From positions 6,070-62,440 of the forward strand of contig JAKAIF010000001.1 in the NCBI GenBank assembly GCA_021814445.1: a stretch of DNA of 56,371 nucleotides, in the 5' to 3' direction. Made by a program: the position numbers and the translations under genes. This document shows positions 14,422 to 50,714 of this stretch, piece after piece. Position 1 is the first letter of the stretch. Each line of letters begins with the position of its first letter. Source of the DNA: a bacterium. GTDB lineage: Bacteria; Patescibacteriota; Minisyncoccia; UBA6257; JAGOQP01. The notes beneath the pieces were generated by a model. That model ran no database searches, was not told the DNA's origin, and saw only the letters and a list, made by a program, of their open reading frames with translations.

Positions 14422-14463
14422 TTATTTTGGGGAAACTACACTATTTCAATCCAATTTACAGAA

Positions 14464-14497
14464 GCCAAAGTTTTTGACGATCGTCAAAAACTTTGGC
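14464..14497. repeat. family 1 palindrome, copy 2 (likely ileS terminator)
   Basis: gccaaagtttttgacgatcgtcaaaaactttggc is identical to the core at 1836-1869. Confidence 0.9.
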
Positions 14498-14661
14498 CTT
14501 TTGAATTTATTTTAGACAAACTGAAAAGATAAGAAACAACCTCTGTGCTCGTCGGAAGATTTTTGTTTTTCATGTGCACTAAAGATTGCTTGCAGAAAAA
14601 AATAAAATACGTCATACTGTATCCATAATCCTTGTCTCGTGAGGAAACAGGGATACTATAG

Positions 14662-20988: not shown

Positions 20989-21555
20989 ATGTTGGCATAT
21001 AATGAAGTAAGAAAAGGACATGTGATTGTCTATGAGGGATCGGCGTATGAAATTTTATCCGCGGATTTTTTGCGCATGCAACAACGCAAGCCAGTTATGA
21101 AGGTAAAAATGCGTGAGTTGGCGAGTGGAAAAGTAAAAGAAACCTCGTTTCAATCTAGTGATGAATTTGAAGAGGCTGAATTAGATCGTATTCCGTCTAC
21201 TTTTTTGTATAAAGGAAAGGGAGAATTTTGGTTTTGTGAAAAAGGAAATCCCAAAAATAGATTTATGCTTCCTGAGACTGACCTTGGTTTATCGGCTCAG
21301 TTTTTGAAACCGAATAGCGAAGTGACCACGGTGAAATTTGGAGAAAAAATTATTGGGGTACAGCTTCCTATTAAAATGGAATTTTTGGTGACTGAAGCTC
21401 CCCCCGCTATAAAGGGAAATACTGCGCAGGGAGGAAATAAACAAGTAGTATTGGAAACAGGAGCGATGGTGAACACCCCCATGTTTGTGAATGAAGGAGA
21501 TGTGATACGCGTGAATACGGAAACAGGAGAATATGTAGAACGGGTGCAGAAGTAG
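20989..21555 (+). CDS. efp: elongation factor P
   Basis: 188 aa. Colinear with EF-P throughout (KGHVIVYEGSAYEIL..., GNTAQGGNKQVVLETGAMVNTPMFVNEGDVIRVNTETGEYVERV). Confidence 0.95.
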   Translation: MLAYNEVRKGHVIVYEGSAYEILSADFLRMQQRKPVMKVKMRELASGKVKETSFQSSDEFEEAELDRIPSTFLYKGKGEFWFCEKGNPKNRFMLPETDLGLSAQFLKPNSEVTTVKFGEKIIGVQLPIKMEFLVTEAPPAIKGNTAQGGNKQVVLETGAMVNTPMFVNEGDVIRVNTETGEYVERVQK

Positions 21556-21560
21556 TAATT

Positions 21561-21593
21561 AGCTCGCCTCGCTGGACGCGAGTCGAAGCGGGT
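21561..21593. repeat. family 3 repeat (agctcgcctcgct...cgaagcggg), copy A
   Basis: Related copies at 36826..36856 (same orientation) and 36005..36035 (inverted). All three lie just after stop codons. Confidence 0.7.
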
Positions 21594-21668
21594 GACTAGG
21601 GGCTAGGGGCTAGGGGATAGTTTAGAGAGAATATAAAAACAGCATCAGAAATGAGCTGTTTTTATATA

Positions 21669-36813: not shown

Positions 36814-36825
36814 AGAATAGTAACT

Positions 36826-36856
36826 AGCTCGCCTCGCTGAAGTTGTGGCGAAGCGG
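36826..36856. repeat. family 3 repeat, copy B
   Basis: agctcgcctcgctgaagttgtggcgaagcggg. Followed by the bidirectional stem-loop aaaaaatatcccc-gta-ggggatatttttt at about 36868-36895. Confidence 0.7.
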
Positions 36857-36906
36857 GCAATTAGTAAAAAAATATCCCGTAGGGGATATTTTTTGTGTAT
36901 GGAAAT

Positions 36907-37488: not shown

Positions 37489-38190
37489 TTATTTTATAAA
37501 TGTGTATTTTTTCCTTTTTTCTTTTTTTACGTGTTGTATTAATTCTTCTGCAAGCTTTCTCTTCCTTAATAATGTTGGAAGATTCTTTTTATAATAAATC
37601 CACCTAAGAAGTTGGATTGATTCGTGTTTACCGAATTTAATCCCCCAAATAGGAACGCAGTTTTTATTTTTTGGTTTTGCGCAAACAACAGCTCCACTTA
37701 TTGGTGATAATTCTTTTATTTTCTTGTGTAGCCAGAGGATGTGTTCTTTGCTCGCAGATATAAATCTAACAAATACACGATAATTTGTGTATACTCTTCC
37801 TTTATATGTCTCGCGTTTATCAATGTAAGTCTGGATATTTCCATCGCCATCCAAGTGTCCACGCAAAAAATCTTTAAAGAATCTGTTTGGAATTTCTATC
37901 GCTCCGATGGTGTATGTTTTTGCTGGGAACAACCCTATTTTTAAAAGCCAATTGTAGAACTGAACATTTCCAAACTGAACTCGGTACCCCCTGTCATTTT
38001 CAGTTGAACCTATTTTATTAGTAAGATTTAAACAGTATTTAAATGTTTCTAGGAGTTGAGGATCGGATGACCTCATATTAATATGTCTTCCGTCTTTTGA
38101 TAAGTTTCCATCGGTCACTAAAAGACCGACGATGTATGCGAGTTGTGGCGACCATACAAAATTCCTTGTGGGTAATTTTGTTCTTGCCAT
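37489..38190 (-). mobile_element. free-standing LAGLIDADG homing endonuclease (double-motif)
   Basis: Two dodecapeptide motifs, LAYIVGLLVTDGNLSKDG and FLRGHLDGDGNI. The track ORF (to 38229) overlaps the tRNA 3' end; ATG 38190 (MARTKLPTRNF) is preferred. Confidence 0.85.
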
Positions 38191-38202
38191 AATATTATTC
38201 TG

Positions 38203-38286
38203 TGCCCGAGGCCGGACTCGAACCGGCAAGGTCTTGCGACCATAACATTTTGAGTGTTACGTGGTTACCAATTTCACCACCCGGGC
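38203..38286 (-). tRNA. tRNA-Leu (anticodon CAA), class II with long variable arm
   Basis: The minus strand reads GCCCGGG-TG-GTGAAATTGGTAACCAC-G-TAACA-CTCAAAA-TGTTA-TGGTCGCAAGACCTT-GCCGG-TTCGAGT-CCGGC-CTCGGGC-A. The cloverleaf folds by eye. CCA is not encoded. Confidence 0.9.
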
Positions 38287-39682: not shown

Positions 39683-39788
39683 GTTGGTTTGCGGATACTT
39701 ATGGATATTAGTGGATATTATATGTATATGATCTGTGTGTTGATATTATAATTTGGATATTGGAGCGTGGTGCTTTATACTATACCCT

Positions 39789-41072
39789 ATGGGATTGGAA
39801 TCATTAATACCAAATAAGAACAATCAACAACCGCAACAAAATGGCGGTTTTATTCGTGATGTCACGCGAGATGACATTGATGAATTAGATATTGAAGAAA
39901 CACGCTATACCGTGCGCCGCGAACGAGATGATTTGGGTGTATTGAGTTCTCTGCTTGCGGGAACTTCTCATCCCACACGAGAACCCTCTCCGTTTCAACA
40001 AACGCAGTCACCCTATGCGGCGCCACACTATCCAGCGTACAATGAACCACACACCACACACCACACACCACGTGCATATCAAGAACCACCTGTACGTGAG
40101 ACGTATCGTGAAACAGAATCTTTTGATCAACCTGTACGTGAAGAGTGGTCCGAAACACAAAGACCACCGATTCATTCACAACCTACATCTTCACCGTCTG
40201 CGATGGTACGAGAATCATTTGTGAGTCCCAAACAAAAAACCGAACATGAGATTCCCATGTTAGCGGGACCTATTTTTCAAGTGGAGGTGGGGAAGATTCA
40301 AGATAATCCCTATCAACCTCGCAAAGAATATGATGCCACTGCGCTTGATGAGCTCGCGGCGTCCATTCGTGAATTTGGTGTTATGCAGCCATTGGTGGTA
40401 ACGCGTATGAATGAGGAAACCGAAGATGGTCTTCGTACTACGTATCAATTAATCGCGGGGCATCGCCGCTTGATGGCGTCAAAGAAAGTGGGACTCAAAA
40501 CAGTCCCGGTGGTTATTCGGAGTGCTCTCAAACGTGGTGATGCGCTTGAGATGGCTATTGTAGAAAATATTCAGCGACAAGATTTAAACGTAGTAGAGAC
40601 CGCTCGCGCATACGCGCGACTCTCTGATGAATTTGGACTGACGCAACGAGAGATTGCGGCGCGATTGGGGAAGAGTAGGGAATCTATTGCGAATACCTTG
40701 CGTTTGCTTTCACTGCCCACACATATGCAAGATGCTGTTTCCGCGGGAAACATAAATGAAAGTCATGCGCGCATTTTGATGCAGATTCAAGATCCGATAC
40801 AACAACAAAAAATGTTTGATCAAATTGTTCGCGAGGGACTCAGTGTGCGTGATGTAAAACGAGTGTTGTCTCATGCAACGCCTCATGCGCATACCACACA
40901 TCAATCCGTCAATCCTGCTATGAAATCGTTAGAGCAAGATATTTCTGATGTGGTGGGTGCTCCCGTACATATTGAACTCTCAGATAAAGGAGGAAAAATT
41001 GTGATTCATTTTTATTCACCTGAAGAAGTGCAGGGGATTGCGCAAAGAATTAGGAAGGAACAGCAGTACTGA
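39789..41072 (+). CDS. parB: chromosome partitioning protein ParB/Spo0J with long low-complexity N-terminal spacer
   Basis: Starts MGLESLIPNK. ParB boxes include LIAGHRRLMASKKVGL and VPVVIR, and there is an HTH LTQREIAARLGKSRESIANTLRLL. About 170 aa of Pro/Glu/Thr/His-rich sequence precede the ParB domain. The track start TTG 39753 is less likely. Confidence 0.9.
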   Translation: MGLESLIPNKNNQQPQQNGGFIRDVTRDDIDELDIEETRYTVRRERDDLGVLSSLLAGTSHPTREPSPFQQTQSPYAAPHYPAYNEPHTTHHTPRAYQEPPVRETYRETESFDQPVREEWSETQRPPIHSQPTSSPSAMVRESFVSPKQKTEHEIPMLAGPIFQVEVGKIQDNPYQPRKEYDATALDELAASIREFGVMQPLVVTRMNEETEDGLRTTYQLIAGHRRLMASKKVGLKTVPVVIRSALKRGDALEMAIVENIQRQDLNVVETARAYARLSDEFGLTQREIAARLGKSRESIANTLRLLSLPTHMQDAVSAGNINESHARILMQIQDPIQQQKMFDQIVREGLSVRDVKRVLSHATPHAHTTHQSVNPAMKSLEQDISDVVGAPVHIELSDKGGKIVIHFYSPEEVQGIAQRIRKEQQY

Positions 41073-41112: not shown

Positions 41113-41214
41113 CTGTGCATAACTTATATGACACACCATAAAAAACAGCCAATGAGGCTGTTTCGTTTTGGGGTTGACGTAGGCGCTTGTATATTTTGTT
41201 ATATTATATATAAT
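41113..41214 (+). repeat. family 4 intergenic module (conserved box + terminator stem-loop + promoter), copy A
   Basis: ctgtgcataacttatatgacacaccataaaaaacagccaatgaggctgttt...ggggttgacg...tataat. Related copies at 43366, 49590, 52445 and partly at 21635. Confidence 0.8.
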
Positions 41215-41269
41215 CAAGTCGTGGGTTAGTTCCCACAAGAGCTCTTCAAAACTAAATACTGAGGTATTT

Positions 41270-41443
41270 ATGGCCGTTCAAAAACACAAGGTCACCGCAG
41301 GAGCTAGAATTTTGAAATCAATTAAAACAGAGGTTGCTTTACAAAAGAAGAAAACACAGGCCTCTGGGAAGAATATGATTTCAGATTGTAGTGAATTAAA
41401 CTGCAGTACCTATTGTTCCGATCACCAAGACGCGGGTAATTGA
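41270..41443 (+). CDS. candidate RiPP precursor peptide (57 aa, below the ORF-track cutoff)
   Basis: The ATG lies 5 nt after gagg, downstream of the copy A promoter. The peptide is MAVQKHKVTAGARILKSIKTEVALQKKKTQASGKNMISDCSELNCSTYCSDHQDAGN: a Lys-rich leader and a C-terminal core with three Cys-Ser pairs. It ends 123 nt upstream of the radical SAM/SPASM gene. Confidence 0.5.
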   Translation: MAVQKHKVTAGARILKSIKTEVALQKKKTQASGKNMISDCSELNCSTYCSDHQDAGN

Positions 41444-41566
41444 TTTGATGTCTTGGTATTAGGGGATTTAGCCGCTTCTACGATTTACTGTGGGGGCGGC
41501 AAACCTTATTCAATTTTATTTGAAAATTAAAATGTAATAAATAATAAACTAGGAGATATTAAAGAA

Positions 41567-42652
41567 ATGAGAGAGAAAATAACGGTCATGATTTTACCAG
41601 TCGGGTTGTCGTGTTTGTTGGATTGTTCCTATTGTTATCATGGTGGAAAGGAATCATTTGGTTGTAAGTCAAGGATTCAAATCATACCAGATTATATTCT
41701 AAAAAAGGTGGTATACGATAGCGTCCAATTGGCAAAGAATATTGATTTTCTATCACACGGAGGAGAGCCTCTTCTTGCTGGGCTGCCTTATTTTAAAAAA
41801 CTCGTTGGTTTTCAGGAGCGGATTGATTTCAATGGAATCATCCGTAATATAATTCAGACTAATGCGGTTCTGCTTGATAAAAATAAGGTTCAGTTTTTTT
41901 CGAAAATGGGTTTTATTCTTAGCACAAGCGTGGATGGTTCAAAAAGGTTACATGATGCAAATAGACATTTTTCTAACGGTGGGGGTAGTTATAACCTTGT
42001 AAAATTAGGAGTGAAACTCTGGCGTTCTGTGGAAGAGGGTAAAAATCTCATTGGAGCAGTTACTCTTATAACAAGTACCAACGTTGATTATCCGGAGGAG
42101 GTCTTTAATGGATTGAAGAAGTGTGGTGTTACCAGTTGTGCCCTTCATTTTTGTTCTCAGAATGAAAGCGGTTCTATAACCAATATCCCCGAAGACTTTA
42201 AAACATTAGATTTCTTGAAGAAATTTTTTGATTTATGGTTTGAGAAAGATGATCCGAAGTTTCCAATAAGAAATTTTAGGAACATTCTAAGGGTTTTGTG
42301 TGGTGGAACTACTTTAGACTGTGCTTCTACGGTTGGTGGTTGTTCTGGATTTATAGCCGTTGATCAAGGTGGAGATGTTTATCCGTGTCATAGATTCGTC
42401 GGCAATCCTGATTTTAAGATAGGAAATATACTTGAGAAATCTCTCCGGGAGATATATGAGGATGGTGCTGATCTTTACGCGCGGATCTCTAAGCTTCATG
42501 AGTCTTGTTCTTCTTGTGAATTTTTAAATATGTGTGGTGGGGGATGTTCGTATGAAAAATATGTTGTCTGTGGGGATTTTGGTGGTGTTCCCCCAGAATG
42601 TAAAATAAAGAAAGAATTATTTCTTTATATTAGAGACAAAGTATCTTTTTAA
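41567..42652 (+). CDS. radical SAM enzyme with C-terminal SPASM domain (peptide maturase / anSME-like)
   Basis: 361 aa. CLLDCSYC (Cx3Cx2C) near the N-terminus, HGGEPLL, and the SPASM signature CSGFIAVDQGGDVYPC...CSSCEFLNMCGGGC (Cx2Cx5Cx3C) plus further Cys residues. aggag SD 8 nt upstream. Confidence 0.9.
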   Translation: MREKITVMILPVGLSCLLDCSYCYHGGKESFGCKSRIQIIPDYILKKVVYDSVQLAKNIDFLSHGGEPLLAGLPYFKKLVGFQERIDFNGIIRNIIQTNAVLLDKNKVQFFSKMGFILSTSVDGSKRLHDANRHFSNGGGSYNLVKLGVKLWRSVEEGKNLIGAVTLITSTNVDYPEEVFNGLKKCGVTSCALHFCSQNESGSITNIPEDFKTLDFLKKFFDLWFEKDDPKFPIRNFRNILRVLCGGTTLDCASTVGGCSGFIAVDQGGDVYPCHRFVGNPDFKIGNILEKSLREIYEDGADLYARISKLHESCSSCEFLNMCGGGCSYEKYVVCGDFGGVPPECKIKKELFLYIRDKVSF

Positions 42653-42656
42653 AACT

Positions 42657-42685
42657 AAAAAAAGAGACTTAGGTCTCTTTTTTTT
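42657..42685. terminator. bidirectional stem-loop between the convergent rSAM and methyltransferase genes
   Basis: aaaaaaagagac-ttag-gtctcttttttt. Confidence 0.75.
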
Positions 42686-43274
42686 GAGCTACTATTTGTA
42701 CAATGTAATGACTGTGTGGATCTGGATATCCTTGGTGTCCTTTATCTTTTACCTCATTTTCTTCACAGGCGAGAATGTTCCATTCATTAAACCCACTCTT
42801 TAATTCTTCTGGTGTAAAAAATGAGAAGAACCCACCATCTTTTTTCTGAAATGAACCCTTCTCAATTTCTTGTGATGTCTCCTTTAATTTATAGAACATA
42901 GCATCATTTGGAGTGAATAAGGATATTACTATGATCCCGTCTTTTAGTGTGGATTCTTTTATTCTTTCTATGATAGAGAAAGCCTTTGATTTTTGTAAGA
43001 AACAGAGAGAGTGAAGGGCGAGGACCATTGAATATTTATTTTCTTTGAAATTAAAATTTTGTATATCTTCTCTTTGTGCGGATAGATTTAAGTTTTCTTC
43101 TTGGGCAGTTTTTGAGAGGTTTTGTATTACCTGCTCTTTTGTATCTATGGCAATTACTTTAAAACCATTTCGCGCAAGAAATAAAGATTCATTTCCGACC
43201 CCACATCCAAGATCAAGGGCGGTTCCTTTTGGTAGGGTGCTAATATATTTTTTGATAAACTCGCGAGCGCTCAT
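42669..43274 (-). CDS. class I SAM-dependent methyltransferase (TehB-like)
   Basis: 201 aa. ALDLGCGVGNESLFLARNGFKVIAID (motif I plus acidic loop). Convergent with the rSAM gene. Confidence 0.8.
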   Translation of the reverse strand: MSAREFIKKYISTLPKGTALDLGCGVGNESLFLARNGFKVIAIDTKEQVIQNLSKTAQEENLNLSAQREDIQNFNFKENKYSMVLALHSLCFLQKSKAFSIIERIKESTLKDGIIVISLFTPNDAMFYKLKETSQEIEKGSFQKKDGGFFSFFTPEELKSGFNEWNILACEENEVKDKGHQGYPDPHSHYIVQIVAQKKET

Positions 43275-43365: not shown

Positions 43366-43467
43366 CTGTGCATAACTTATACGACACACTATAAAAAACA
43401 GCCAATGAGGTTATTTCATTTTGGGGTTGACATTGGTTCTTGCATATTTTCTAGCATGTTTTATACT
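43366..43467 (+). repeat. family 4 intergenic module, copy B (stem degenerate)
   Basis: ctgtgcataacttatacgacacactataaaaaacagccaatgaggttattt...ggggttgaca...tatact. Confidence 0.8.
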
Positions 43468-45898: not shown

Positions 45899-47362
45899 AT
45901 GGTGCTTAATAACAAGAATAAAAATAGTGCGAAGAGACTCTTTTCAGAAGCCATTGATATTGGTATTGGTTTTAAGCTACAAGATGCTGTCTCAAAAAAA
46001 CATATAACCGATGAAGATATTGAAAGAATTATTTGTAATCTTCCTCATGCAGGTATATCGGTTAAAAATATTTTGCGTGATTTTAAAAAAGATATCCTGC
46101 CATTCTGTACCAATTTTAGTAGTAGAAACTTTTTAGGGTTTCCTGATGCAGGAAATTCTATTGCTGCGCTTGAGGGAGGGATCTTGTCTGATTTTTTGCA
46201 ACAAAATCTTATAAATCAAAGTTTCTGTGCGCCAGCGGCAACATTCGTTGAGATAGCAGTTCTCCAATGGCTTCGTGAAATTGTAGGATATAAAAAACAG
46301 AAACCAAAAGACATTTGGGAGGTTGGGGGAATTATAACTCCCGGTGGTACAGTTAGTAACTCGGTTGCGATGATGCTCGCGCGCGAGAATAAAGAACCCG
46401 GGACTCTTGAAAGGGGTGTTGTGGATCCCAAATCGTATCAAGTAATTGTTCCAAAAGGGATTGGTCATTATAGTGTGAAAAGTGGACAGATGTGGATTGG
46501 GTGCGGTAATAATTTACTTGAAGTAGAAACAAACGATTTTCGTTATGATTTGAAAAAATTAAAACATACCTTATTGGAAAATAAAGGAAAAATCATGGCC
46601 CTTGTGGCATATGCGGGGGATAGCAGGACTATGACAGTTGACAATCTTAATGCTATTGCAGATCTTGTACATGCCATAGATCCAAAGATTTGGTTACATG
46701 CTGATGCTTGTCACGGATTTAGTTTAGGCTTTAGTCAAAAATTGCGATACAAGATAAAAGGAATTGAAAAGTTTGATAGTATATCAATGGATCCACATAA
46801 AGTTATGCTGGTTCCATATACACTAAGTGTTCTTCTAGTAAAGAATTCCGAAAATATGAAGAAAATAACTAGTATGTCTGATCTTATTATGCAGGAACAA
46901 TTTGCGTTTGGTCAGATCACGCCATTTCTTGGTAGTAAACCGTGGAGTTCTCTTAAATTGTGGTTTATGATGAAGAATTTTGGGAAAAAGGGGCTTGATG
47001 AATTAATCACTAAACGTCATAATCTTGCAGTATATCTTGCAGACAAATTAGGAAAAGATTCTGACTTTAAAGTCTTAAATCGTGTAGAAATAAACTCGGT
47101 AGCGTTTTTTTACACCGGTGTGGATAAGTCACAAATTGATGAGATAAATTATGTGAATAAAGAAATACATAAGAAAATTCTAAATGAGGGGAAATTTCAT
47201 CTCCACCAATTTAGTATTCCTGACATTGGTTTATTTAAGAAAGGAGATGTTGTATATCCACTTCGTTTTATGTGCGGTAATCCAAACGTTACTACGAAAA
47301 ATATTGATGATATGGTTGAATATATTCGATCAATAGGAAGAAAGATAAAACGTAGAAAATAG
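45899..47362 (+). CDS. PLP-dependent group II amino-acid decarboxylase
   Basis: 487 aa. GGTVSNSVAMMLAR, HADACHG, SMDPHKVMLVPY (PLP lysine in the DPHK motif). Confidence 0.85.
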   Translation: MVLNNKNKNSAKRLFSEAIDIGIGFKLQDAVSKKHITDEDIERIICNLPHAGISVKNILRDFKKDILPFCTNFSSRNFLGFPDAGNSIAALEGGILSDFLQQNLINQSFCAPAATFVEIAVLQWLREIVGYKKQKPKDIWEVGGIITPGGTVSNSVAMMLARENKEPGTLERGVVDPKSYQVIVPKGIGHYSVKSGQMWIGCGNNLLEVETNDFRYDLKKLKHTLLENKGKIMALVAYAGDSRTMTVDNLNAIADLVHAIDPKIWLHADACHGFSLGFSQKLRYKIKGIEKFDSISMDPHKVMLVPYTLSVLLVKNSENMKKITSMSDLIMQEQFAFGQITPFLGSKPWSSLKLWFMMKNFGKKGLDELITKRHNLAVYLADKLGKDSDFKVLNRVEINSVAFFYTGVDKSQIDEINYVNKEIHKKILNEGKFHLHQFSIPDIGLFKKGDVVYPLRFMCGNPNVTTKNIDDMVEYIRSIGRKIKRRK

Positions 47363-47363
47363 T

Positions 47364-48023
47364 ATGAATATAAAAACCAGCATTTTTAGAGAAATAACTT
47401 CTTTTTCTAAAGAACACCTGCGCCATCTTGATCATTTTATTCTCGTTTATGGTTCATATGCCTCTGGGCATTATTGTGACACATCCGACATTGATGTTTT
47501 TATTATTGTGGAAAAATATAACAGTAAAGATTTTACTAGATCTTTAAATTTTCTAACCGACTTGCATGATCGTTATAATTTAAAGATCGATAATGAAGTT
47601 CCATATGTCAATAAACTTATTGTGTCATACAAAGATGTGATGCGCGCTATCGCGTTAGATCCTTTTATCTATAAAGAAGAAAAGTATTATATTCCCCCAA
47701 TAAGGAAATCAAAAAAGTTTCTCTCGTCTCAAGAAATTCGTTGGAGACTTATCTTAAACGCCCTAACATCTCCTCACTTGTTTATCTACGGAAATAAAAA
47801 GAAATATCTTTCATTTAAAAATGACATGGAAAAATCAATAGTGAGGCTTGCTCTTGGGCTCGTGGGGACACAAAAACCAACCATAAACAACTTAATAAAG
47901 ATACTCCTTACCAGTACACATGGAGAAAGGGGGGAGATGTATTTGGGGTATAAAAAAGAAAGAAAAGAAGTTGTGGAATATCTAAAAAACCTCATAGAGA
48001 GGAATTCCGCGCTCCCTATATAA
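47364..48023 (+). CDS. nucleotidyltransferase-domain protein (Pol-beta superfamily)
   Basis: 219 aa, GSYASGHYCDTSDIDVFIIV (GSx9-10SDxD). Starts 1 nt after the decarboxylase stop. Confidence 0.7.
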   Translation: MNIKTSIFREITSFSKEHLRHLDHFILVYGSYASGHYCDTSDIDVFIIVEKYNSKDFTRSLNFLTDLHDRYNLKIDNEVPYVNKLIVSYKDVMRAIALDPFIYKEEKYYIPPIRKSKKFLSSQEIRWRLILNALTSPHLFIYGNKKKYLSFKNDMEKSIVRLALGLVGTQKPTINNLIKILLTSTHGERGEMYLGYKKERKEVVEYLKNLIERNSALPI

Positions 48024-48032
48024 TATATAGAC

Positions 48033-49046
48033 ATGCTTGATTTTTCGACAAACACAAATTCATTAGGACCACCGCATTCTCTTATCCGTGTTCTTCGAGA
48101 GAATGTATTTGATGTGAGTGCATACCCTGATTATAAAAACAAGAAGATCCTCTCCGCTTGTGGGAAGTTTTTTGATGTTTCGTTCAAAAACATTGGATTG
48201 GGTACGGGGTCCACACAGATACTCTTTAATATTCCCAAAATGTTACAATATAAACGCGCAGTCATTATTGTGCCTACATTCTGGGAATATGCAAATTTCA
48301 ATTTATTATTTAAGAGAAGAATAAAAAAGATTGATTTACTTGAGAAAGATAACTTTGAACCAAATTATGAAGTTATTCAAAAAACCATAAGGAGTGGTGA
48401 TTGTGTTTTTATTTGTAATGTCAATAATCCTACCTCATCTATATATATAAAGCATAAGTTATTAGCTCTTATAAAGGGTAATTCTCATGTTCAATTTGTT
48501 ATTGACGAAACATATTTATTGTTTAGGAGCAACTATGCACGACAGAGTGTTGTCAAATATGTGCAAAAACAAAAGAATCTTCATGTTGTTACGTCTCTCT
48601 CAAAACTCTTTGCTATTCCTGGAATGCGAGTTGGAATTTTTATCTCTAATAGAAAAATCATAGAGCTGTATAATAAATTGTTTTATATTCCTTATTCAAT
48701 TAACTCCTATTCTTCGGCATCACTTATTGATTTGTTGAGTGATGATGTGTTTGTTAGAGAAACGAGAAATTTTTATGACGTAGAACGAAAAAGATTATAT
48801 GAAATTATAAATAAGAAACTATCGCGTCGTCTCAAATGTATTGAGCCGCATGGTAATTTCATTTTTGTTCGTATATTAACCTCACAAACAAGCCAGGACA
48901 TAGAAACTTGTCTGAAGAGAAGGGGAATTATTATTCGTGGAGGCCACGAGTTACTTGGGGTAACGAATAAATGGTTTCGATTTTCTATCGGGAAAAAGAA
49001 GGATAATAACAGATTTATTCGTGAGTTAAATAAGGTGGTTCATTGA
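48033..49046 (+). CDS. class I/II aminotransferase-fold enzyme, HisC/CobD-like (aminotransferase or phospho-amino-acid decarboxylase)
   Basis: 337 aa. CNVNNPTSS (NPxNPTG-like), IDETYLLF, SLSKLFAIPGMRVG (SxSK PLP lysine). Confidence 0.8.
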   Translation: MLDFSTNTNSLGPPHSLIRVLRENVFDVSAYPDYKNKKILSACGKFFDVSFKNIGLGTGSTQILFNIPKMLQYKRAVIIVPTFWEYANFNLLFKRRIKKIDLLEKDNFEPNYEVIQKTIRSGDCVFICNVNNPTSSIYIKHKLLALIKGNSHVQFVIDETYLLFRSNYARQSVVKYVQKQKNLHVVTSLSKLFAIPGMRVGIFISNRKIIELYNKLFYIPYSINSYSSASLIDLLSDDVFVRETRNFYDVERKRLYEIINKKLSRRLKCIEPHGNFIFVRILTSQTSQDIETCLKRRGIIIRGGHELLGVTNKWFRFSIGKKKDNNRFIRELNKVVH

Positions 49047-49589: not shown

Positions 49590-49701
49590 CTGTGCATAAC
49601 TTATACGATACCCTATAAAAAACAGCCAATAGGGCTGTTTTTTGGGGGAGGGGAGGCGCTTGACAACTTGCTAATTTGGTGAATATGGGGTATACTATAA
49701 T
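49590..49701 (+). repeat. family 4 intergenic module, copy C
   Basis: ctgtgcataacttatacgataccctataaaaaacagccaatagggctgtttttt...aggcgcttgaca...TTGCTA-17-TATACT. Confidence 0.8.
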
Positions 49702-49808: not shown

Positions 49809-50714
49809 ATGAAACGCAAAATCTTTTCTTTCGTTACCCTCCTGCTTATCGCATATATTCTTCCTGCAGGAGTTTTTTCACAGTCTGGATCTTTGGTCCA
49901 GAACTTTACCGCCAGGTGGATCAACAAGGTTCCTTGGCTGTCGTATACCAATAGCGCCCAGGCAGAATTTAGCACCCGCGTGGATACCTGTTCACAATTA
50001 GGATGCTATATTCGTATTTTAGAACAGAAAGATATTCCCGGTGTAGATAATGGTGCATTCTTTTATTGGATCGCGGATCCCCAGGAGGTACTTCCTGTTC
50101 CCGATTCTGTAGAGATTATCTCAAAATGGATATCTAAGAATCCTCAGAATCTCCCGCTTGTTCGTCTTCAAGTTGAATTACTTCAGAAGACATTTGGAGG
50201 GGGGTATTTCAGTGAACATAAAGACATTGACTCTACATGGAATACTTATGTATGGAAGATTACCGATACCTATCGCAGGGTTCCATCATTTGAAGGATTT
50301 GCGGTCGGAGTTATTATTGGTCAATCTACGGTTTCAATGAAGGCGGTAGTGGCTATTAAAACCATAAAGCTTTGGAAGAATGGGGTTTGCTACTATCAAT
50401 ATTCATTCTCTGGGACAACCACCGTTGCTGTTGAGACCCCGACCATTCCTGCTAGTTTTACTCTCTCCCAGAATTATCCCAACCCGTTTAATCCTACTAC
50501 CACCATTAAGTATCAAGTCGCAAGTCGCGAGCACATTAGGCTTACGGTCTATGACTTACTTGGTAGGGAGGTTGCGATACTCGTAGACGAAGAAAAGTTC
50601 ACCGGCACTTATGAAGCAAGATTTAATGCTTCTACCCTTGCCAGCGGTACGTATATCTATCGTTTGCAGGCGGGACACCAGGTTCTTACTCGTAAGATGC
50701 TATTAATTAAATAG
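49809..50714 (+). CDS. secreted protein with T9SS (Por) type A C-terminal sorting domain
   Basis: The signal peptide is MKRKIFSFVTLLLIAYILPAGVFSQ. The C-terminus LSQNYPNPFNPTTTIKYQV...LTVYDLLGREVAILVDE...GTYEARFNAS.LASGTYIYRLQAG...TRKMLLIK matches the Por_Secre_tail pattern. A strong ggaggtg SD lies upstream. Confidence 0.8.
   Translation: MKRKIFSFVTLLLIAYILPAGVFSQSGSLVQNFTARWINKVPWLSYTNSAQAEFSTRVDTCSQLGCYIRILEQKDIPGVDNGAFFYWIADPQEVLPVPDSVEIISKWISKNPQNLPLVRLQVELLQKTFGGGYFSEHKDIDSTWNTYVWKITDTYRRVPSFEGFAVGVIIGQSTVSMKAVVAIKTIKLWKNGVCYYQYSFSGTTTVAVETPTIPASFTLSQNYPNPFNPTTTIKYQVASREHIRLTVYDLLGREVAILVDEEKFTGTYEARFNASTLASGTYIYRLQAGHQVLTRKMLLIK

Follow-up and report, generated by a model that had tools for sequence, protein, structure and literature searches.

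Introduction

Radical S-adenosylmethionine (SAM) enzymes with a SPASM domain, of which MftC is a founding SPASM member (PMC6231123), act in several described peptide-modifying systems. Those nearest in sequence to the enzyme considered here are the anaerobic sulfatase-maturating enzymes (anSME), in which the first auxiliary cluster (Aux I) is bound by Cys255, Cys261, Cys276 and Cys330 (PMC6231123). In CteB, PapB and Tte1186, Aux I has three ligands, and the Cys or Sec of the substrate binds the open iron (PMC10177961; PMC6231123). Triceptides are defined, in the passage cited from PMC11499958, by aromatic1-X2-X3 crosslinks, and the triceptide synthase ChlB was crystallized with the leader of its own precursor (title of PDB entry 9GM3). 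Genomes of the Patescibacteria, or candidate phyla radiation (CPR), are tiny, and genome mining usually reports few or no biosynthetic clusters in them; the passages of two surveys that mention Patescibacteria give no or few such clusters (PMC11613949, PMC8692599). The present report concerns a probable biosynthetic cassette of three genes on a patescibacterial contig (NCBI GenBank assembly GCA_021814445.1, contig JAKAIF010000001.1, positions 6,070 to 62,440 of the forward strand). This stretch of 56,371 nucleotides (nt) was analyzed as a whole and is called the window; coordinates without a locus name are counted from its first letter.

The cassette comprises a gene for a precursor peptide of 57 amino acids (aa), a gene for a 361-aa radical SAM/SPASM enzyme and a convergent gene for a TehB-like methyltransferase. 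It is likely to be a genuine locus for a ribosomally made, enzyme-modified peptide of the RiPP type (a peptide synthesized ribosomally and then modified post-translationally), as a first reading of the DNA alone (the original prediction) had proposed. Its family is regarded as new and apparently restricted to the CPR, within the known kind of radical SAM/SPASM-modified ribosomal peptides; a literature search found no earlier description of this CPR family, which does not prove that the family is unpublished. The three open reading frames (ORFs) of the cassette, and the features of the precursor gene, are:

41261..41264, + strand: Shine-Dalgarno-like GAGG, 5 bases 5' of the precursor ATG (read from the sequence)
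41270..41443, + strand: precursor peptide gene, 57 aa (ORF call; homologous ORF upstream of the orthologs of the radical SAM enzyme)
41306..41335, + strand: leader motif R13-I-L-K-S-I-K-T-E-V22 (alignment of 30 distinct precursors)
41411..41431, + strand: core Y48-C49-S50-D51-H52-Q53-D54, with the Cys49 codon at 41414-41416 (precursor alignment)
41567..42652, + strand: predicted radical SAM/SPASM peptide maturase, 361 aa (Pfam Radical_SAM PF04055, SPASM PF13186)
42669..43274, - strand: TehB-like class I SAM-dependent methyltransferase, 201 aa (Pfam TehB, 5.3e-21)

Co-inheritance of precursor and enzyme

A protein search with the radical SAM enzyme of the window gave 43 ortholog clusters at 36-54% identity, and the DNA around orthologs was taken from three long contigs and from a metagenome scan with the enzyme alignment; groundwater and lake samples, for example those of the Hainich H43/H51 assemblies, were sources of the loci. 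In a first pass, small ORFs were picked by two independent criteria, either a Cys-rich tail or the listing of every upstream reading frame; the precursor profile was built from 30 of the same ORFs already chosen in this way. All 39 ortholog loci with upstream sequence have a homologous small ORF immediately upstream and in the same orientation, which bears out the proposed candidate locus of precursor, radical SAM/SPASM enzyme and methyltransferase. The profile gave exactly one match per locus in all 39 (E-values 1e-8 to 1e-21), a single match in the whole 56-kb window and none in about 40 loci of distant relatives of the enzyme. The enzymes of the precursor-bearing loci share only 34-54% identity. 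Their flanks vary by locus (GatC/amidase, D-Ala-D-Ala ligase/histidine kinase, aspartyl-tRNA synthetase, ParB/methionyl-tRNA synthetase (MetRS), or a polyketide synthase (PKS) fragment), and because the flanking genes differ, the precursor and the radical SAM gene are taken to travel as a unit. The small ORF is more than a chance reading frame.

Annotations seem only rarely to include the precursor gene. A phmmer search of 1.8 billion representative proteins gave two matches only, both members of the precursor family, and the profile, run against 5.8 billion predicted proteins, gave 12 family members. The small ORF had been described as unannotated, but it is not so everywhere: contigs of three other public assemblies contain a 99.9% identical cassette, and in these near-identical contigs a 57-residue product is annotated at the position of the precursor.

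The four homologs of the radical SAM enzyme with an informative taxon name are from Patescibacteria, Parcubacteria or Berkelbacteria, and the closest named homologs of the MetRS of the window (57-68% identity) are from Patescibacteria or Paceibacterota. In the data examined, the cassette family was found only in Patescibacteria wherever the source was named. A single-protein scan of genome contigs gave relatives at 22-27% identity only, from other phyla. Among the loci with 25-30% identical enzymes (L056-L090), those of L058, L062 and L073 look like a different family, because they are 458-466 aa long and have N-terminal extensions.

In locus L035 (1355-3094), the radical SAM match starts at residue 162, right after an ORF judged transposase-like by eye; an insertion element seems to have broken up this cassette. 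A YcaO-domain protein is encoded about 2 kb downstream of one related CPR cassette (L091, 6038-7098), and another (L097, 5475-5608) is near a large PKS-type ORF (Acyl_transf_1/KR/PKS_DH) and a phosphopantetheinyl transferase.

The precursor peptide

The small ORF was called exactly as the original prediction had given it, together with its own Shine-Dalgarno-like sequence. The product (MAVQKHKVTAGARILKSIKTEVALQKKKTQASGKNMISDCSELNCSTYCSDHQDAGN) is bipartite in the alignment, with a conserved leader (approximately residues 1-36) and a more variable core (residues 37-57, ISDCSELNCSTYCSDHQDAGN) containing a conserved (Y)C. Across the 30 distinct precursors the leader follows the pattern [KR]-I-[ILV]-x-x-I-[KR]-x-E-V, in which Glu21 is near-invariant. 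Cys49 is the sole near-invariant residue of the core (29 of 30 aligned precursors) and the presumed focus of modification; a Tyr before it is common, and [HWY]-[HQES]-[DE] often follows it. The key feature of the core had earlier been seen in three Cys-Ser pairs with regularly spaced Asp/Asn residues. These turned out to be lineage-specific, the Cys-Ser pairs at C40 and C45 being limited to one sub-lineage of the family.

Two types of core occur. In type A, to which the window peptide belongs, Y-C-[S/T/A/I] is part of a core that ends in CSES or runs on as D-H-H-D-A-D-H; type B reads [Y/H/D/E]-C-[D/E]-W-H-D. One precursor (L048, 2167-2400) has the usual leader (KLLKVVEKEV) and a Cys-free core, M-Y-F-S-S-G-H-H-D-W-D (MYFSSGHHDWDAHH...); this natural replacement of Cys by Ser is relevant to the chemistry. 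The L048 locus encodes a transglutaminase-like protein but lacks the methyltransferase. Where the enzymes are 31-33% identical, the relatives have a similar leader but other cores, with Y-G-D repeats in L091 and Y-G-D/W-F-N-C in L093. No NCBIfam model matched any of the ten peptides tested at E<=10, and no Pfam family matched the window peptide at E<=1.

The radical SAM/SPASM enzyme

All the features that had been predicted for the enzyme are present: a 361-aa ORF that starts 123 nt 3' of the precursor (with AGGAG at 41551-41555), a Cx3Cx2C motif, a full SPASM motif and flanking cysteines. The radical SAM cluster motif is C16-x3-C20-x2-C23, in which each Cys is at least 90% conserved in 44 orthologs; as it begins at residue 16, there is no N-terminal extension of the size of a RiPP recognition element (RRE), in agreement with the first reading. 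The eight SPASM cysteines, C314-x2-C317-x5-C323-x3-C327 together with C252, C259, C274 and C345, are invariant in the 44 orthologs, and the SPASM model TIGR04085 scored 63 bits against a cut-off of 27. The ligand sets are C252/C259/C274/C327 for Aux I and C314/C317/C323/C345 for the second auxiliary cluster (Aux II). The Aux I cysteines, all invariant, are the counterparts of residues 255, 261, 276 and 330 of anSME, and the Aux II cysteines align with anSME residues 317, 320, 326 and 348, its Aux II ligands.

The best NCBIfam matches to the enzyme are anSME (208 bits) and DynA (189 bits), followed by weaker matches to the PapB, GrrM/OscB, DarW, AmcB, YhhB, SCIFF and QhpD models; every subfamily match is below its curated cut-off, and the ranking is unchanged across the 44 orthologs. 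The nearest PDB sequence is anSMEcpe (E = 1.7e-70), and next come ChlB (a triceptide synthase) and CteB (a thioether synthase); in a profile comparison with the PDB, anSME scored 241 bits and the next entry 130. The AlphaFold (AF2) model of the enzyme has a predicted local distance difference test (pLDDT) score of 94.4. Foldseek aligned this predicted structure with anSMEcpe at a template modeling (TM) score of 0.83-0.84 and, at full length, with ChlB 9GM3 (TM 0.85/0.82); CteB fits the model less well owing to its extra RRE domain. With this full-length match to ChlB, no additional domain of RRE size is apparent, and since ChlB was crystallized with a leader, leader recognition without an RRE would have a precedent.

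The residue after the third Aux I ligand (C274-H275 in the window) is His or Asn across the family, in the pattern GD[VI]YxC[HN]R[FY]. The aligned residue of anSMEcpe is Asp277, the proposed catalytic base; in CteB the position also holds His. From sequence and modeled fold, the enzyme is built on an anSME-like scaffold without being a canonical anSME, and it is not a typical thioether or triceptide synthase either. It is read as anSME-like because the fully ligated auxiliary clusters are shared, and as non-canonical because the Asp277 position is His or Asn and the cut-offs are missed.

Partner genes

The methyltransferase, whose nearest PDB entry is TehB (3M70, 5e-13), scored 75, 74 and 87 bits with TIGR00477, PRK11207 and PRK12335, for which the cut-offs are 219.5, 218 and 303, and its alignment with TehB is confined to the N-terminal SAM-binding half; it is a TehB-like protein and not TehB. 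The predicted convergent arrangement, with a bidirectional terminator-like hairpin shared with the radical SAM gene, is present in the window. In all type A (YC[STAI]) loci with enough flank (n=30) the methyltransferase adjoins the radical SAM gene, convergent downstream in all but one, where it is upstream. It is absent from every type B (C[DE]WHD) locus, in which a convergent HExxH protein of 275-334 aa, or a small transglutaminase-core protein, takes its place. Core type correlates perfectly with the partner enzyme, methyltransferase versus HExxH or transglutaminase-like protein. Type A loci with an extra partner are L012 (HExxH protein) and L001 and L041 (transglutaminase-like). The methyltransferase gene is the conserved third gene of the type A cassette, and its product is presumed to be a tailoring enzyme.

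HExxH proteins were seen in L030, L033/34, L037-40, L042-45, L050, L053, L092 and L012 (HEMVHL, HEAIHL, HEIIHA). No Pfam or NCBIfam family was assigned to them, and similarity near the motif, to SprT or of a flagellinolysin-like kind, is weak. Alpha-ketoglutarate HExxH hydroxylases accompany ChlB-type systems, as stated in the passage cited from PMC12636437. A hydroxylase of this kind (ChlH-like) was considered for the HExxH partner and rejected, NCBIfam giving no such family, and the protein is therefore called a putative metallopeptidase, its family being unknown. In the sister loci, both it and the transglutaminase-like protein are candidate leader peptidases. In the window, tblastn found no HExxH or transglutaminase-like partner, and the called neighbors from 35.5 to 50.7 kb include no protease or exporter. 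The earlier statement that neither is adjacent therefore holds for the window; the sister loci do have candidate proteases.

Intergenic elements

The hairpins and the repeated module in and around the cassette are:

41471..41500, + strand: 12-bp stem-loop followed by a U-rich tract (fold, between the precursor stop and the ribosome-binding site of the radical SAM gene)
42656..42686, no strand assigned: bidirectional terminator-like hairpin, A-run/AGAGAC-TTAG-GTCTCT/T-run (read from the sequence)
41113..41212, + strand: 100-nt intergenic module, copy 1 (repeat comparison)
43366..43465, + strand: 100-nt module, copy 2, which together with copy 1 brackets the cassette (repeat comparison)
49590..49689, direct copy: 100-nt module, copy 3, which precedes the Por_Secre_tail gene (repeat comparison)

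The region 41441-41570 folds at -33.8 kcal/mol (z = -4.75). A G+C-rich hairpin of unrelated sequence is found at the same position in most of the 28 other loci folded, and the fold between precursor and radical SAM gene has z < -2 in 21 of 29 loci, the window counted. Hairpins after the structural gene are common in bacteriocin and RiPP operons. The stem-loop at 41471-41500 is likely an attenuator or transcript stabilizer that sets the ratio of precursor to enzyme. The second hairpin, AGAGAC-TTAG-GTCTCT at 42663-42678, lies in the 16-nt gap between the radical SAM and methyltransferase genes, with the stop codon of the methyltransferase in its loop; a consensus terminator scan, which needs at least three G-C pairs, did not call the hairpin at 42656..42686.

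Each copy of the 100-nt module is just 5' of a + strand gene, namely those of the precursor, a 122-aa membrane-anchored protein and the Por_Secre_tail protein. The first half is invariant and forms a terminator-like hairpin (A-run/ACAGCC-loop-GGCTGT/T-run). The second half contains TTGAC(G/A) in two of the three copies, copy 1 having TTGACG after the hairpin. A promoter of the precursor had been attributed to this module; the module is real and has three copies, but a sigma-70 consensus scan called no promoter in it upstream of the precursor. Rfam gave no family matching the module at the gathering threshold. From its layout, the module may be a terminator/promoter unit.

Proposed pathway and alternative explanations

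In the pathway proposed for the cassette, the 57-aa precursor would be translated from its own ribosome-binding site, and the hairpin after its stop codon would probably pass only part of the transcription on to the enzyme gene. The RRE-less radical SAM/SPASM enzyme would bind the conserved leader helix R-I-L-K-S-I-K-T-E-V, cleave SAM and take a hydrogen atom from one of the side-chain carbons of the core Y48-C49-S-D-H-Q-D; a second electron would go to the two fully Cys-ligated auxiliary clusters, giving a two-electron-oxidized product. The TehB-like methyltransferase may then add a methyl group to the peptide, and the leader would be removed, in sister loci by the HExxH or transglutaminase-like proteins, here by another protease. 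It may be speculated that the mature His/Asp/Cys-rich end is a metal-binding or signaling peptide, not a classical bacteriocin. Several observations weigh against a RiPP cassette of this kind. No protease or exporter is encoded in the 56-kb window. The chemistry is ambiguous: the four ligands of Aux I are all Cys, as they are in anSME, the core of one member (L048) is free of Cys, and Y-G-D repeats occur in more distant relatives. By sequence the methyltransferase is a generic one, linked to the peptide through adjacency only.

Two commonplace identities, both named in the original prediction, were compared with the proposed cassette. The precursor resembles bL32 of Escherichia coli (MAVQQNKPT..., 57 aa) in its start, MAVQKHKVT, and in its length, so the small ORF might be a divergent bL32, or another housekeeping mini-protein, beside the radical SAM gene by coincidence. 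However, this N-terminus was not found in other members of the aligned family, whose starts are different and whose only common parts are the leader motif within the peptide and the core at its C-terminus, and the small ORF follows the radical SAM gene through unrelated neighborhoods. There was no Pfam or NCBIfam match at E<=1, to bL32 (PF01783) or otherwise, and BLASTP against E. coli bL32 gave no alignment; the probability of such a coincidence is negligible. It is also very improbable that the enzyme is an ordinary anSME serving a sulfatase elsewhere in the genome, with the upstream ORF irrelevant, even though its best hidden Markov model (HMM), PDB and fold matches are anSME and one public record labels an ortholog 'anaerobic sulfatase maturase'. 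The models TIGR03942, PRK13758 and PRK13745 scored 208, 146 and 136 bits against cut-offs of 349, 441 and 484, and the Asp277 position is occupied by His or Asn. No sulfatase signature was found in the window ORFs of at least 150 aa, and in about 50 ortholog loci there was no sulfatase-like gene among the recurrent neighbors and no Pfam Sulfatase family among the called genes shown, as the predicted combination of a peptide partner and no sulfatase nearby would have it. A canonical anSME serving a sulfatase was rejected on the missed cut-offs, the absent Asp277, the absence of a sulfatase signature and the peptide that is always the partner.

The type of bond formed we infer, and chemistry centered on Cys49 has, in total, about an even chance. 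Within it, a thioether closing a small ring from Cys49 to a neighboring residue is a tentative possibility, to which the near-invariance of the Cys and the C-x3-D spacing of type B cores point; it is weakened because Aux I is a site closed by four Cys ligands and aromatic-x-Asp motifs recur, and the Cys-less member L048 also stands against it. The thioether-type product of the original prediction is accordingly not supported, all four Aux I cysteines being present, unlike in CteB, PapB and Tte1186. About equally tentative is a crosslink from an aromatic residue to a beta-carbon, of the triceptide or dynobactin kind, from Tyr48 and/or His52 to the residue two positions on (Ser50, Asp54), which would leave Cys49 as a bystander or as a metal ligand of the product. 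An aromatic-x-[S/D/E] triplet is found near the Cys in every core (Y-C-S, H-H-D, W-H-D or H-Q-D), the 31-33% identical relatives have Y-G-D repeats (L091) or Y-G-D/W-F-N (L093), and the window core has the triplets Y-C-S and H-Q-D, although the presence of the motif is no proof of crosslinking. DynA is the second-best NCBIfam match; GrrM/OscB, DarW, AmcB, DarE and YhhB reach best E-values of 2.9e-52 to 2.3e-44, against 2.2e-47 for PapB; the triceptide synthase ChlB equals anSME as a structural match (TM 0.85/0.82); and the RRE-less build and fully ligated auxiliary clusters suit an electron-sink role. Yet such a crosslink leaves the sole near-invariant Cys of the core unexplained, five YCSES-type cores have no [HWY]-x-[DE] and three C[DE]WHD cores no aromatic residue before the Cys, every cyclophane family HMM is far under its cut-off, and the aligned ChlB stretch is CxxCx5Cx3S, with Ser at the C327 position and profile positions 243-303 unaligned.

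An anSME-type oxidation of the beta-carbon of Cys49 (or of a Ser) to a thioaldehyde or formylglycine is rather unlikely. No family is closer in sequence than the anSME, by a clear margin (241 bits, the next PDB entry having 130), and they have in common with the enzyme the eight auxiliary-cluster cysteines, the size and the lack of an RRE; the Cys is near-invariant, and the exception, L048, has Ser-Ser there, which parallels the Cys-type and Ser-type sulfatases. In the methyltransferase-linked type a small residue (S/T/A) follows the Cys, as it does in the sulfatase motif C-[TSAC]-P-x-R. The position of Asp277 of anSME is nevertheless His or Asn, and Asn is incapable of acting as a base; no Pro/Ala-x-Arg follows the Cys; the equivalog cut-off is missed (208 against 349 bits); the Ser variant comes from a single locus; and we know of no precedent for formylglycine in a leader-dependent RiPP. 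It may be speculated that an oxidized product could hydrolyze, condense within the peptide or be trapped by the methyltransferase as an S-methyl enethiol. Some other chemistry altogether is also rather unlikely. Similarly doubtful is the bolder proposal that anSME-derived CPR enzymes perform an unprecedented modification at the near-invariant Tyr-Cys, which could give a small His/Asp/Cys-rich peptide of the metal-binding or redox kind; the minimal-genome episymbionts would keep this peptide as a physiological factor, for metal handling or host interaction, and not as an antibiotic. Possible candidates are an oxidized Cys beta-carbon whose enethiol the methyltransferase captures, and a Tyr-Cys or His-Asp crosslink.

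A further alternative concerns the role of the product and is compatible with the proposed explanation of how it is made. The product may, with some but not high probability, be an intracellular peptide-derived cofactor or metal chaperone (compare PQQ, mycofactocin and the crosslinked subunit QhpC) that is not secreted, which would account for the lack of genes for export and immunity. The cassette is compact, there is no transporter in the window or the sister loci, and the cassette is widely kept in apparently very small genomes. His, Asp, Cys and Tyr, residues of the metal-binding or redox type, abound in the conserved end; this composition, together with the absence of an exporter, makes a metal-binding or intracellular role plausible. 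SPASM enzymes make cofactors, with PqqE among the PDB matches and the QhpD model among the NCBIfam matches. Against a cofactor, no dehydrogenase or other cofactor-using enzyme co-occurs, and the cores vary much among lineages, a variability more usual in RiPP natural products than in cofactors; the candidate leader peptidases of the sister loci fit either role.

Genomic neighborhood

The genes flanking the cassette are housekeeping or unrelated. Upstream are S6, SSB, a serine hydrolase, a LAGLIDADG ORF, ParA, an ArsR-type helix-turn-helix protein and ParB; downstream are the 122-aa membrane-anchored protein, MetRS, a pyridoxal phosphate (PLP)-dependent decarboxylase, a nucleotidyltransferase and an aminotransferase. 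The G+C content of the window is 39.6%, and with about 34-37% the cassette is not distinctive, so that its composition does not mark it as foreign.

Some other features of the window are recorded here. In ParB (39753-41072, + strand) the ParB_N domain is preceded by an N-terminal extension of low complexity, about 170 aa long, in which His, Pro, Gln and Thr are abundant. The LAGLIDADG-domain ORF (37489..38229, - strand) overlaps, as called, tRNA-Leu(CAA) (38202..38286, same strand) by 28 nt and may be a free-standing homing endonuclease. Directly after MetRS, the run of PLP-dependent decarboxylase, nucleotidyltransferase and class I/II aminotransferase (45899-49046, + strand) is possibly a small operon for the modification of an amine or amino acid. 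A protein with a Por_Secre_tail domain (type IX secretion C-terminal sorting) is encoded at 49809-50714 (+ strand) in this patescibacterial window. A 53-nt repeat at 1834-1886 and 14462-14514 is centered on a perfect palindrome of 38 nt (AAGCCAAAGTTTTTGACGATCGTCAAAAACTTTGGCTT) and is probably either a site of protein binding or a bidirectional terminator that is shared. A 47-nt repeat with a G+C-rich inverted repeat occurs, at 79% identity, at 21553-21599 and 36818-36864 (TAGTAATTAGCTCGCCTCGC...GAAGCGGGTGACTAG), after ORFs ending at 21555 and 36560.

Significance

A compact cassette of precursor, maturase and tailoring gene has been retained across many divergent CPR lineages, and its retention in tiny genomes, at a cost, implies a real function. 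The family is unusual in that radical SAM RiPP systems are rarely reported in the CPR lineage and in that its partner enzymes are cleanly partitioned; it was probably missed because the precursor is seldom called and the enzyme is automatically named 'anaerobic sulfatase maturase'. An enzyme-substrate pair that lies between anSME, cyclophane synthases and thioether synthases should be useful for learning what sets the bond type in SPASM enzymes, and the correlation of core type with partner enzyme is a natural experiment. The cassette is also a possible handle on metal handling or host communication in the CPR.

Comparison with known systems

Like the mycofactocin (MftA/MftC/MftM) and PQQ (PqqA/PqqE) systems, the cassette pairs a small precursor with a SPASM enzyme, and mycofactocin has a methyltransferase as well. 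Unlike them, it has an enzyme of another subfamily (PqqE scores only 28 bits against the family profile), no RRE chaperone resembling MftB or PqqD, no partner redox enzymes and far more variable cores. With PapB, Tte1186, CteB (PDB 5WGG) and QhpD it shares the use of a radical SAM/SPASM enzyme on Cys-containing cores. The C-x3-D spacing in the C[DE]WHD-type cores recalls the CX3D motif of PapA; the window core has the spacings C-S-D and C-x4-D, and the Cys-to-Asp distance is not uniform in a family with one Cys-less member. CteB also has the Y-P-C-H-[RQ]-F segment that follows the Aux I ligand; in CteB, Arg is opposite C252 and Aux I has three ligands (hmmsearch alignment; PMC10177961). Unlike the ranthipeptide, SCIFF and sactipeptide synthases, the enzyme has no N-terminal RRE, and it scores at most 131 bits with their models against cut-offs of 340-453 (PapB, NF047865, 131 against 340; ScfB, TIGR03974, 107 against 425).

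The triceptide synthases (ChlB, XyeB, GrrM/OscB, YhhB, AmcB, FxsB) and DynA are likewise RRE-less radical SAM/SPASM maturases that read the leader directly. The similarity to DynA amounts to 189 bits here and extends down to 7.9e-77 in orthologs, but the cut-off of NF041298 is 450 bits and the core is unrelated to WNSNVHSYRF (PMC10125368). The triceptide cut-offs are missed as well (120 against 310, 103 against 445, 94 against 425 and 89 against 370 bits), and in contrast to these families and to DynA, which do not require a Cys, the core of the present family has a near-invariant one. The closest likeness is to anSMEcpe and AtsB (PDB 4K36-4K39; TIGR03942), which are nearest in sequence and joint-best in fold, have about 360 aa, no RRE and two fully ligated auxiliary clusters (PMC6231123), and target a Cys or Ser inside a peptide chain. 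In distinction from anSME, the putative substrate of the present enzyme is a dedicated, leader-bearing mini-peptide without C/S-x-P/A-x-R, and its gene was never seen beside a sulfatase, its partner being a methyltransferase or a putative protease.

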